Positions 20,010 through 39,124 of a stretch of 64,000 nucleotides of DNA are shown here, piece by piece. Each line of letters opens with the position of its first letter. Position 1 is the stretch's first letter. The position numbers were made by a program, and so were the translations under genes. This stretch comes from Holosporaceae bacterium (GTDB taxonomy: Bacteria; Pseudomonadota; Alphaproteobacteria; UBA3830): NCBI GenBank assembly GCA_031274295.1, contig JAISQI010000040.1, positions 1,190 to 65,189 on the forward strand. Reading direction: 5' to 3'. Under the pieces are notes generated by a model. That model did not search any database, had not been told where the DNA came from, and saw only the letters and a program-made list of their open reading frames with translations.

Positions 20010-20185
20010 TCTTCCTGTTTATCCTAAAATAGATCGCGCCGCAACAATGGATTTGTTGCAATTTGTATCAATTTAGCGAAATCAATGAAAATTTCGAAGA
20101 GAGCAGATAAAAATACGTCGCCGGGGGAAATTTAACTAAAATTCAATGTTTTCATGAGACAATTTCATTAGTAGTTGGATGAATT

Positions 20186-22186
20186 ATGAGACTATTGTGC
20201 ATTTACATACTGCCCTTACTGTGCTGTTTTATCGAAACCTGCGGAAAAATTTTCGCGGAGGATGCGGTTAGTATAGTTAATATTGAACCTTTAAAGCCCC
20301 CCCTAGAGTCAAGTACGAAAAGCGATCCATCCAATGCCAATATAGAAAAAGAAAAGACCACGGAAAATAAATCAGATTCTGAAAAATCGCAAAATGCTTT
20401 GGAATCAACCTCAAAAGATGAAAAATCAAACTCAACCGCAGAAAAAGAAAAGATCGCTGGTGCTTCAACCTCTGAAACATCGCAAAATGTCACACAACCC
20501 CCTCAGAAAGATAAATTAATTGATTTTAGCATAACAGGATTAGAAAAATTTTCATTTCTCATGGAAACGCTGAATCCTATGTTGATTTTCAACATTGAAA
20601 TAGGAGAACTTTTCGAAGAAGAAGAAATTGAGGAGGAGGAAGAAGAAGAAGAAGAAGAAGAAGAAATCGAGGAAGAAAATTCTGATCAGCAAGATTCGCA
20701 TGATGAAGATGAAGAAAAAGAGGAAGAAGACTCTAATCAGCAGAGTCTATATGATGAAGAAGATGGAGAGGAAATTCCGGAAAACCAAATGGATCTCCTA
20801 GAAGAAACTGATGGTCTGGATGATCCAGATGACGTAGATGATAATTATGATCGGGATGGTGATCGAGACGATCAAGGCTACGAAGACGATGATAATGACT
20901 ATAGAGATCGAGACGATCGAGGCTACGAAGATGATGACGCCTACGATCAAGATGACAATTATGATCGGGACGATCGAGAAGACTATCGAAATAATGGCTA
21001 TGACGATCAGGATAATCAAGACTCCGGAGATGAAGAAAGAGACGACAGAGCATCCTCCAGAGATCCTCAAAACCGCCGTTCGAATAAAAAAGGAACAGAT
21101 GAAATAGAAGGCAATCGTCTGGTAGTAGAAGAAACAATAGACTATCTCAAAACTCTCGGAGTTATCGATGAATCTAAATTAGACGGTCTGGTTTTTGGCG
21201 ATACAATGCACGGAATCTGCCTGTTGTGCCGGAAGGTTGGTCTTGTACATAAGATAGGCGGACAATTCCAATATGGAATATGCACCAATTGCATGCAACA
21301 AAAAACATATCAATTGGAAAAAGGAGATACATCGGGAGAATCTCGTGGCCAGTTTAGCGGCAATAATGTCTCACTTGATGAATATAACAGTCCGAGAAAT
21401 GATAGCAGAAAAGAACATGCTGGAAGAGAACGCAATTTGAGATCCGACGATGACGGCGGCAATGGCTATTACGAAAGAGGATCTCCAAGAAACCGAAGGG
21501 ACGAAAACCAAGGAGAGAACGGATTGCTGGGCATGTTAACGAGCGGTGCAGGTGAAGCCATAAAGGGGTTATTCAATAAAGAAGATACTGGGGCAACAAT
21601 TTCCATGGCTCCGGCTCCTGTTCCAATAGCGGTGGCGCCTGTGGCAAATGCTGTTCCTGCGGTTCAACCAGTCGCTCAGGCCCCTCAGTACACTCAGGCT
21701 ATACAGACAGTTCCAACTGCCCCATTAACAAAAACGGATAATATCATGAATAAAGTAGGGCAAGGCGTAGACATTGCATCTAAAGTAGCAAATTTGGGAA
21801 CTTCCATTGCTAGCGCAATTCCACCAGGTCTGTTAAATAAAACTCCAACGGCGCCGACAACCAATGCGGTAGCTGGAAATCCAATCACCACAACGACGCC
21901 ATCTCCTACTCTGGGCGGAAATCCGATCGCTGCGGTAGCAAATACAGCGACATCCAGCGTATCAGATAAAACTGCACAGGCCCAAAGCAACGCGGCTGGT
22001 ATAAAAATAAAACTAGATTTAGCGATGAAGGAATTAGAAGGACAAAAACAAAAGATTAGTAGTGGGGGGTTAACAGGTAAGACTTTAAAGAAAGCACAAT
22101 TAGAAATGGAAAAAACACAAAATGAGGTAAATTCGCTTCAAACTGAATATAACCAAGCGATGGAAGAAGTTAATAAGCAGCAATAA
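20186..22186 (+). CDS. secreted hyper-acidic repeat protein with CxxC...CxxC knuckle, Ala/Pro/Thr-rich region and C-terminal coiled coil (orphan)
   Basis: Signal-like MRLLCIYILPLLCCFIETCG. Glu run and DRDD(Q/R)GYEDDD repeats. CLLC...CTNC at 21218-21292. APAPVPIAVAPVANAVPAVQPVAQAP. Heptad-like KKAQLEMEKTQNEVNSLQTEYNQAMEEV. Confidence 0.6.
   Translation: MRLLCIYILPLLCCFIETCGKIFAEDAVSIVNIEPLKPPLESSTKSDPSNANIEKEKTTENKSDSEKSQNALESTSKDEKSNSTAEKEKIAGASTSETSQNVTQPPQKDKLIDFSITGLEKFSFLMETLNPMLIFNIEIGELFEEEEIEEEEEEEEEEEEIEEENSDQQDSHDEDEEKEEEDSNQQSLYDEEDGEEIPENQMDLLEETDGLDDPDDVDDNYDRDGDRDDQGYEDDDNDYRDRDDRGYEDDDAYDQDDNYDRDDREDYRNNGYDDQDNQDSGDEERDDRASSRDPQNRRSNKKGTDEIEGNRLVVEETIDYLKTLGVIDESKLDGLVFGDTMHGICLLCRKVGLVHKIGGQFQYGICTNCMQQKTYQLEKGDTSGESRGQFSGNNVSLDEYNSPRNDSRKEHAGRERNLRSDDDGGNGYYERGSPRNRRDENQGENGLLGMLTSGAGEAIKGLFNKEDTGATISMAPAPVPIAVAPVANAVPAVQPVAQAPQYTQAIQTVPTAPLTKTDNIMNKVGQGVDIASKVANLGTSIASAIPPGLLNKTPTAPTTNAVAGNPITTTTPSPTLGGNPIAAVANTATSSVSDKTAQAQSNAAGIKIKLDLAMKELEGQKQKISSGGLTGKTLKKAQLEMEKTQNEVNSLQTEYNQAMEEVNKQQ
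20630..20665 (+). repeat. trinucleotide repeat (GAG)3(GAA)9 encoding 12 consecutive Glu
   Basis: Counted directly: GAG x3 at 20630-20638 and GAA x9 at 20639-20665, in frame within the 20186-22186 ORF. Confidence 0.95.
20861..20950 (+). repeat. imperfect 45-bp tandem duplication (15-aa unit DRDD[Q/R]GYEDDD...)
   Basis: GATCGAGACGATC[A/G]AGGCTACGAAGA[C/T]GATGA begins at 20861 and again at 20906. Weaker related copies flank it. Confidence 0.8.
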
Positions 22187-37873: not shown

Positions 37874-39124
37874 ATGGAAAGAACGACAGAGGGTGAGGAG
37901 ATTTTACGCTGTTCGTTTTGCGGAAAAACTCAGCATGAAGTAAAAAAGCTCATCGTTGGACCGACCGTATATATTTGCAACGAATGCATCGAGCTTTGTG
38001 CTGGTATAATATCAGAAGTGCAGTCGAGTACTGCAATTAAAGGAAAAAGCAATCCTCCTTCTCCTCAGGAAATCTGCAAAATACTAAACGACTATGTAAT
38101 AGGTCAAGATAAAGCCAAAAAAGTTCTTTCCGTTGCCATTTATAACCACTATAAGAGATTAGCCCACACAAATAAGAGTTCCTCCGTTGAATTATCCAAG
38201 TCAAATATTCTACTAATCGGACCGACTGGAACAGGGAAAACACTGCTGGCACAAACTCTTGCGAGAATTATCGATGTGCCATTTACCATGGCCGACGCAA
38301 CTACGCTCACTGAAGCGGGATACGTTGGTGAAGACGTGGAAAATATCATCGTGAAACTGCTACAGGCGGCGGATTATAACGTTGAAAAAGCTCAAATGGG
38401 CATAGTTTACATAGATGAAATAGATAAAATCTCAAAAAAATCAGATAACCCTTCAATAACAAGAGACGTATCCGGAGAAGGAGTTCAGCAAGCTCTATTA
38501 AAAATCATGGAAGGAACGATTTCATCTGTTCCGCCACAGGGAGGGAGAAAGCATCCTCAGCAGGAATTTTTACATGTTGATACAACAAATATATTGTTTA
38601 TCTGCGGTGGAGCATTTGCCGGGCTAGATAAAATTATCTCATCTCGCGGAGATAAATCTTCAATTGGATTTGGAGCGGAAATAAAAAATAAAGATGACCG
38701 TGCAGTGGGAGAACTCTTTACAAAAGTTGAACCGGAAGATTTGTTGAAATATGGACTGATACCAGAATTTATAGGACGAGTACCCGTTATAGCAACATTA
38801 AATGATCTAAACAAGGAAGCTTTAGTTTCGATTTTAACAGAACCGAAAAATGCATTGGTAAAACAATACCAAAAATTATTCGAAATGGAGGGAGCTTCGT
38901 TGGTTTTTGCGGATGATGCAATCCCTACCGTTGCGGAACTAGCTCTGGAAAGAAAAACTGGAGCGAGAGGCTTAAGATCAATTATGGAATCCGTTTTGCT
39001 GGATACCATGTACGAGATTCCATCTTGTAAAAACATCGAAGAAGTAATAATTACTAAAGATGTTATTGAAGGTAAATGTAAACCTATACTAAAATACAGC
39101 AAAATTAAAAGTAGCGTCGCCTAG
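37874..39124 (+). CDS. clpX: ATP-dependent Clp protease ATP-binding subunit ClpX
   Basis: Zinc finger CSFCGK...CNEC, Walker [24 protein letters not shown]. Confidence 0.95.

Follow-up and report, generated by a model that had tools for sequence, protein, structure and literature searches.

A conserved, putatively exported acidic protein with a predicted zinc ribbon in uncultured gut-associated Holosporales

The P0001 gene and its modules

The window analysed here is a stretch of 64,000 nucleotides from the genome of a Holosporaceae bacterium (assembly of 1.05 Mb in 71 contigs, 92.5% complete). We focused on one of its genes, which encodes a hyper-acidic protein that we label P0001 (Table 1); all other P and L labels denote relatives of this protein. 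An earlier reading of the letters alone, hereafter the sequence-only reading, had proposed that this gene codes for a secreted, disordered and modular protein with slippage-prone repeats. The open reading frame (ORF) that it had delineated was borne out, as a single frame of 666 amino acids, opening at the first ATG directly after an in-frame stop, carries every feature listed there. The run of 12 Glu residues encoded by (GAG)3(GAA)9 at 20630-20665 is exact, and the CLLC-x17-CTNC pair is encoded as described. The proposed segment of higher G+C was also found (0.499 at 21600-21990, compared with 0.406 in the upstream part of the ORF). We ruled out a foreign origin for this segment, because third-position G+C is nearly constant along the ORF (0.29-0.39), indicating that the rise reflects Ala, Pro, Thr and Gly codons rather than foreign DNA. 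Asp and Glu together account for 21.8% of P0001, the highest proportion among the 662 ORFs of at least 200 amino acids in its genome.

No RNA families were detected within or beside the gene, and no promoter or terminator signals around it rose above shuffled expectation. The terminator scan flagged a perfect 7-bp inverted repeat, GCAACAA-TGGAT-TTGTTGC, at positions 20041-20059 of the window, in the divergent intergenic region between porA and the gene of the acidic protein.

Table 1. Features of the P0001 gene, in window positions
Feature	Residues	Positions	Strand	Basis or remark
Whole gene P0001	1-666	20186..22186	+	Single ORF, 666 aa; stop at 22184-22186
Signal-peptide-like N-terminus	1-24	20186..20257	+	Candidate cleavage after G20 or A24
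Ser/Glu/Lys/Thr-rich variable region	25-140	20258..20605	+	Composition; pLDDT <50
Hyper-acidic tract	141-305	20606..21100	+	28% Asp, 23% Glu, net charge -68
Family-defining core domain	309-378	21110..21319	+	Alignments A2 and A3; profile search; AlphaFold
Four predicted Cys ligands (CxxC-x17-CxxC)	C345, C348, C366, C369	21218..21292	+	C345 and C348 invariant
Arg/Gly/Asn/Asp-rich linker	379-455	21320..21550	+	Composition, model
Ala/Pro/Val/Thr-rich region	456-580	21551..21925	+	Colinear with nearest orthologue P0004
Conserved amphipathic segment VDIASKVANLGTSIASAIPPGLL	528-550	21767..21835	+	Kept in P0004
C-terminal helical hairpin/coiled coil	581-665	21926..22180	+	AlphaFold, heptad pattern

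The full-length AlphaFold model, built on an eight-sequence alignment, has three confident parts, namely an N-terminal helix (residues 2-26), the core domain and the C-terminal hairpin. In agreement with the proposed disorder, the predicted local distance difference test (pLDDT) is below 50 for 491 of the 666 residues, and its mean is 0.41 in the model that the ESM Atlas gives for this sequence. The modularity of the protein was in turn confirmed by the alignment of its relatives. The heptad-like C-terminus described from the sequence is supported by a heptad score and by two long modelled helices (581-625 and 632-665), with pLDDT values of 87-97. This hairpin is conserved in P0004, L002, L003, L004 and L008.

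The remainder of the protein is of low complexity and evolves fast. The variable region that follows the signal-like segment ends in a short hydrophobic motif, LIDFSI...NPMLIFNI, and it cannot be aligned among relatives except for a short phi-phi-x-F motif just N-terminal of the acidic tract. The acidic tract, the Gly/Asn/Arg linker and the Ala/Pro/Thr tract are unalignable past close relatives (alignment A1). The segment VDIASKVANLGTSIASAIPPGLL is recognisable in most of the seven relatives of that alignment, and its AlphaFold confidence is low. Of 25 family members, 16 have an acidic tract, with at least 43% Asp plus Glu over 60 residues, N-terminally of the core domain. In P0001 it holds the poly-Glu run, a 51-bp repeat at 20654-20763 and the Asp/Tyr/Arg repeats at 20861-20950. 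The 51-bp unit (2.2 copies, 80% matches), which encodes EEE-x-EEENS-x-QQ..., is the strongest tandem repeat of the gene, and it had escaped the sequence-only reading. The 45-bp tandem unit put forward there is present, with copies starting at 20861 and 20906, but only 35 of 45 positions are identical and the period was not called by Tandem Repeats Finder.

Length variation of the repeats, the other prediction made for them, was observed by proxy only. Four sister-lineage orthologues, 98.5-100% identical, differ solely by in-frame insertions or deletions, one within an acidic tract (DEEEENG) and the other consisting of a TTASG/D repeat in 1, 2 or 5 copies. The idea of slippage thus appears to hold for the family, and it is supported by analogy for the repeats of P0001.

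The core domain and its distribution

The only stretch that is well conserved among relatives is a domain of 65-70 residues, at about residues 309-378 of P0001, in which the helix ETIDYLKTLGVIDESKL is followed by a predicted three-stranded zinc ribbon and a short helix. Its consensus consists of a helix, ETIxYLRxLGVIDESKL, and then GxCxxC-x17-GxCxxC. AlphaFold places the helices at residues 305-323 and 367-378 and the strands at 340-345, 351-356 and 363-366, with pLDDT values over the ribbon of 81-89 in the full-length model and of 80-92 when the model of the domain by itself is included. Mature P0001 contains exactly four Cys residues, all at predicted ligand positions, and nearly all the Cys residues of the family outside signal peptides are found in CxxC pairs at such positions. 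The ligand set is CCCC in most members, CCHC in L008, and CCCH in P0020 and P0022. The Cys-to-His swaps in these three relatives, which represent at least two lineages, favour zinc over disulfides, and we infer that the four Cys residues of P0001 bind one zinc ion.

Other putative metal sites were found among the relatives. Extra CxxCGH pairs of the metal-knuckle type directly follow the signal peptide in P0006, P0011, P0020, P0022 and P0024, and P0017 has a second copy of the zinc ribbon at residues 397-435. P0023, a metagenomic protein of 252 amino acids with a different architecture, has three tandem GICxxC...GICxxC ribbons and matches the core profile with an E value of 8e-5, suggesting that the ribbon sub-motif may exist outside the family.

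We used the full-length protein and the core domain to determine the distribution of P0001. The genome search with the full protein identified colinear homologues in 9 of 41 genomes. A search of 1.84 billion representative proteins with the core profile yielded 24 matches, about 20 of them with the same architecture. In the genomes of P0001's own family, the profile detected orthologues that keep the order of the modules, with one copy in each of 25 out of 45 genomes and all six genera represented; among the high-quality genomes of that family the count was 16 of 21. It had no match in 13 genomes from the four other families of the order. A word-indexed homologue search returned P0004 alone, and a pattern scan seeded with P0020 gave no match. 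P0001, itself present in a single copy in its genome, reached 126 bits (1.9e-37) with A2, the core profile of eight sequences, and 112 bits (8e-33) with A3. It displays the traits by which we define the new family, the core helix with GxCxxC-x17-GxCxxC, a signal upstream and low-complexity tracts downstream. The architecture common to the relatives, which are 550-1400 amino acids long, comprises a signal-like N-terminus, a core in mid-protein and a coiled-coil or Lys-rich tail.

The nearest orthologue, P0004, is a partial sequence, 48% identical to P0001 over 383 residues, and the C-terminal 360 residues of the two proteins are colinear. Conserved islands between the two proteins are the core, 'ISMAPAPVP', 'DIASKVANLGTSIASAIPPGL' and the hairpin. 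Most relatives harbour a second module of the family, a repeat of about 45 amino acids (QMVLNAxGQLVPLSSL..APYGYVKDPxTGxLVPAxSLEEGLAAA; alignment A4), with one to four copies after the core, as in P0002 (678-742), P0003 (485-619) and P0016 (789-1105). This repeat has no match in Pfam or the PDB. Even with all filters off P0001 showed no copy of it, nor did a six-frame translation of the complete assembly, and it is also missing from P0004 and L008. The Ala/Pro/Val/Thr tract of P0001 stands where most relatives carry these repeats.

The named records correspond to 'Holosporaceae bacterium' or to unclassified metagenome-assembled genomes (MAGs), and the sources of the named relatives are termite gut (JAITDT01), rumen (RUG13554, RUG10665, RUG11675), yak omasum (RGIG9754) and UBA3830. 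These origins agree with a recent review (PMC11909080), which mentions a Holosporales clade that is derived from the gut and uncharacterised, and with the por operon of anaerobe type that adjoins P0001. A conserved neighbourhood was considered and rejected, as the neighbours differ in every genome examined. P0001 lies next to porA and rne, and its relatives next to mutL, rlmN/rluA, a phage terminase-like gene, rpsD and a Na-H exchanger gene, or LppC and lnt. Judging by sequence conservation, P0001 is no orphan but belongs to a so far undescribed protein family, which is confined to a single family of uncultured Holosporales associated with the gut. The hosts of these bacteria are presumed to be anaerobic gut protists, in which they would live as endosymbionts. 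A single-copy, family-wide gene with a conserved core is no less what one would expect of a core function specific to the lineage than of an effector with fast turnover.

The relationship of P0001 to known families was investigated by sequence and structure comparisons. Whole-protein searches of Pfam, NCBIfam and PDB sequences returned nothing below an E value of 0.5 and no enzyme family, in line with the earlier statement that no enzyme motif is present. The core-alignment profile matched only ribosomal uS14 zinc ribbons in the PDB, below threshold. Pfam searches with 24 core domains at E values up to 10 gave scattered RING, zinc-ribbon and S14 matches, none of them significant. With the core domain model, Foldseek found nothing in the PDB at E values of 0.001 or less, the top entries being PerR/Fur Zn(Cys)4 sites and ribosomal ribbons. 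The ESM Atlas yielded nothing but generic small zinc ribbons, all of which scored below 0.8.

The remote-homology check that the sequence-only reading had recommended for the Cys knuckle gave the ClpX zinc-binding domain (ZBD) as the best, but weak, structural match. The top AlphaFold DB cluster was 'ClpX-type ZB domain' (E 0.02, probability 0.99, template-modelling (TM) score 0.34). In an independent search of 48,161 PDB chains the ClpX ZBD 2ds5_A came first (Z 3.6, root mean square deviation 2.5 Å, 37/43 residues), followed by CsfB and ZAD domains. Neither the TM score of 0.34 nor the Z score of 3.6 reaches the level at which a common fold is shown. The hhalign comparison of A3 with a ClpX ZBD alignment gave a probability of 12.7%, with the Cys residues in register.

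Like the predicted ribbon of P0001, the ClpX ZBD (PF06689; PDB 2ds5, 1ovx) has four Cys residues on two knuckles, with a spacing of x18 compared with x17 in P0001, a treble clef of three strands plus a helix, and the local pattern V-x-K-[IL]-x-G ... [YF]-x-I-C-x-x-C. They differ in that the ClpX ZBD is N-terminal on a cytoplasmic AAA+ ATPase, whereas the ribbon of P0001 sits mid-way in a putatively exported, disordered protein and is preceded by a family-specific helix. Membership of zf-C4_ClpX (PF06689) was rejected because the profile does not match, the position is mid-protein and there is no ATPase domain. At E values up to 10, Pfam reported PF06689 neither for P0001 nor for any of the 24 core domains, and in the genome of P0001 this profile matches the true clpX alone. 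The zinc-binding domain of that gene, at about 37907-38017 of the window, provided a comparison sequence. The C4 zinc finger of DksA/TraR (PF01258) has the identical CxxC-x17-CxxC spacing next to helices; these are cytoplasmic RNA-polymerase-binding proteins, unlike P0001, and membership was rejected, as the 24 family members have no match to this profile in Pfam at E values up to 10. Dimerisation or partner binding is the function of the ClpX, CsfB and ZAD matches, all of them small zinc modules of the treble-clef type. The modelled ribbon of P0001 probably resembles such modules and works like them.

Probable export signal and possible routes outwards

The N-terminus of P0001 consists of MR, LLCIYILPLLCCFI and a candidate cleavage site, ETCG|K or IFA|E. 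It thus has a basic n-region, a hydrophobic core of 14 residues and small residues at -3 and -1, as expected by rules of thumb for Sec export and signal peptidase I (basic n-region, core of 7-15 residues, small -3/-1). It is also the sole hydrophobic segment of the protein (1.87 on the Kyte-Doolittle scale with a 19-residue window). Nineteen full-length relatives share this layout of n-, h- and c-regions, their cores being 9-17 residues long and their sites AxA-like, which lends support to the signal and export claimed from the sequence. Cores of this length are too short for a membrane anchor, and we read the segment as a cleavable Sec signal. P0001 is thus putatively exported by Sec, and both its export and its disorder are well supported.

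Devices that might anchor P0001 or carry it further were sought as well. Its IETC does not conform to the lipobox [LVI][ASTVI][GAS]C, with Glu at -2 and Thr at -1, and the relatives have VAFC, AIFC or FSFC at this position, with Phe at -1. No autotransporter barrel was found, the C-terminus being modelled as a confident helical hairpin without a Pfam match. P0001 does not look like a type I substrate of the RTX or tandem-repeat protein (TRP) kind either, as it has an N-terminal signal-like segment and no match to RTX or repeat families.

The genome of P0001 encodes the type VI secretion sheath protein TssC (C69:8793-9695), two secretins (C10:15531-16007 and C13:8124-8699), DsbB (C13:13137-13559), two TolC-like proteins and a weak DsbA-like protein; the 92.5%-complete assembly yielded no VirB4. 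From this gene content, a route outwards via secretins, TolC-like proteins or a type VI secretion system is conceivable. So, by analogy, is Sec export followed by passage through a secretin, or periplasmic release as for PRP1 of Holospora obtusa. Other ORFs of this genome combine signal-like N-termini with low-complexity runs, on contigs C55, C26 and C23 (834 amino acids with a 13-residue homopolymer run, 1088 and 285 amino acids). The genome may thus encode a set of exported repetitive proteins.

Proposed site of action and role

The modules of P0001 suggest a Sec-exported, largely disordered scaffold protein. Its signal peptide would be cleaved, and the mature protein would leave the cytoplasm. 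The ribbon, holding one zinc ion, would serve as a dimerisation or partner-binding module, as in the ClpX, CsfB and ZAD treble-clef domains, and the C-terminal hairpin would add oligomerisation. The polyanionic and Ala/Pro/Thr tracts would be extended spacers or offer a surface to which cations or basic proteins could bind. The likeliest site would be the outer face of the symbiont, where P0001 would either stay on the surface or be set free in the direction of the host. The reason is that the reducing cytoplasm of a host accommodates a Cys/His zinc site more readily than does a periplasm equipped with Dsb proteins; the fast-evolving spacers also favour a host-facing location. We regard it as an even call that P0001 is exported and acts at the cell surface or beyond it.

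Several observations weigh against an action at the surface. The product is known here from its sequence and predicted models alone, the signal peptide was judged by rules of thumb and conservation rather than by a trained predictor, and the structural match to the ClpX ZBD is weak by all three measures (TM score, Z score and hhalign). Neither Pfam nor the model revealed an autotransporter barrel, a lipobox or another known surface-anchoring device. In the genomes examined, the gene never adjoins a secretion system and has no conserved neighbours. Its single-copy, family-wide occurrence and fixed module order are equally typical of a lineage-specific envelope component, and with DsbB and a DsbA-like gene in the genome the four Cys residues could be oxidised to disulfides in the periplasm.

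P0001 might then be a structural protein of the periplasm or envelope, such as a spacer, a tether or a cation-buffering polyanion, retained on the inner side of the outer membrane and lacking any direct target in the host. A signal peptide unaccompanied by a recognisable device for onward secretion or anchoring would suit such a protein, as would one copy with a fixed module order in all six genera. Ala/Pro-rich linkers and a coiled coil recall TolA, TonB and Lpp-type proteins, and in one relative the gene lies between two envelope genes, an LppC/LpoA-like gene and lnt. However, the gene has different neighbours in each of the genomes examined, a periplasm that contains DsbB and a DsbA-like protein would be an unusual place for a Cys/His zinc ribbon, and the low-complexity parts evolve very fast, which is commoner in host-exposed proteins, although linkers do so too. 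We consider an envelope role possible but rather unlikely. That the four Cys residues form two structural disulfides in an oxidising compartment, with no metal, seems doubtful to us. The export signal, the Dsb genes and the even number of Cys residues in the mature protein would all allow it, but His at one ligand position in three relatives leaves an odd number of Cys residues while keeping a metal ligand, and the geometry predicted here, two knuckles each with a CxxC pair in a ClpX-like fold, is the standard one for zinc.

If the N-terminal segment were an uncleaved anchor, the bulk of P0001 would remain in the cytoplasm, where it might be an acidic scaffold of cell pole or division comparable to FimV/HubP. 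Very acidic coiled-coil repeat scaffolds such as HubP and FimV do exist in bacteria, and a C4 zinc site with Cys-to-His swaps suits the reducing cytoplasm. Nevertheless, the hydrophobic cores of the family are too short for a transmembrane helix and are followed by small-residue cleavage motifs, and Arg2 before the segment with Glu17, Glu25 and Asp26 after it favours an N-in/C-out orientation by the positive-inside rule; such a scaffold is in our view very improbable. At the far end is the proposal that there is no gene at all, only a chance open frame across low-complexity DNA. The repeats of P0001 do yield long spurious ORFs as by-products, in the other frames and on the minus strand. Yet orthologues with the same architecture occur in 25 genomes, their cores are 27-65% identical to that of P0001 while the flanks diverge, and P0004 is 48% identical over 383 residues. 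This conservation effectively refutes a chance frame, and on its strength P0001 is a real, conserved gene.

The preferred reading, a protein exported to the outer face of the symbiont, has parallels elsewhere. TRP32, TRP47 and TRP120 of Ehrlichia and Anaplasma, obligate intracellular Alphaproteobacteria, are strongly acidic, disordered tandem-repeat proteins with strain-variable repeat numbers. They lack an N-terminal Sec signal and exit by type I secretion, and unlike P0001 they have neither a zinc ribbon nor a C-terminal hairpin. No similarity between them and P0001 emerged from Pfam, NCBIfam or PDB sequence searches. Closer to P0001 in taxonomy, Holospora obtusa stores signal-peptide proteins in its periplasm and then releases them to the host (PMC9866348). 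Its 63-kDa PRP1 and its 89-kDa invasion-tip protein are likewise lineage-specific Holosporales proteins with putative signal peptides (PMC9866348; bioRxiv 10.64898/2026.10.08.757700), and they provide a precedent for Sec-exported proteins that reach the host. The 89-kDa protein has been described as having a long alpha-helical C-terminal part, as is modelled for P0001. PRP1 carries a D5_N DNA-binding domain, neither protein has been described as hyper-acidic or zinc-binding, and both are Holospora-specific, whereas the family of P0001 was found only in gut MAG lineages. The likeness is one of description; no sequence relationship was found, the two having not been compared directly with P0001.

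The export, disorder, modularity and, by proxy, repeat instability put forward by the sequence-only reading have thus stood, while the conserved single-copy family had been missed. Acidic, repetitive, exported proteins are a common type in intracellular bacteria. A Cys/His zinc ribbon behind a Sec signal is unusual among Gram-negative bacteria, and the family brings two modules not described in databases, the domain made of a helix plus a zinc ribbon and the repeat of about 45 amino acids present in most relatives.

It may even be that the family is a signature host-interaction factor of gut-protist-associated Holosporales, a secreted polyanionic decoy for basic host proteins, although we give this idea only a slim chance. 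If it were true, the poly-Glu and mixed-charge Arg/Asp tracts would resemble those of eukaryotic nuclear and histone-binding proteins, the zinc module would mediate dimerisation and the Lys-rich tails of some genera, which look like nuclear localisation signals, entry into a host compartment, and strains would adjust the interaction through variation in the length of their repeats. All that is known of the gut-associated Holosporales clade comes from metagenome bins. As a putatively exported, single-copy and clade-restricted protein, P0001 and its relatives are a candidate marker of this clade and a candidate for localising the host and the interface with it by antibodies or by approaches coupled to fluorescence in situ hybridisation.

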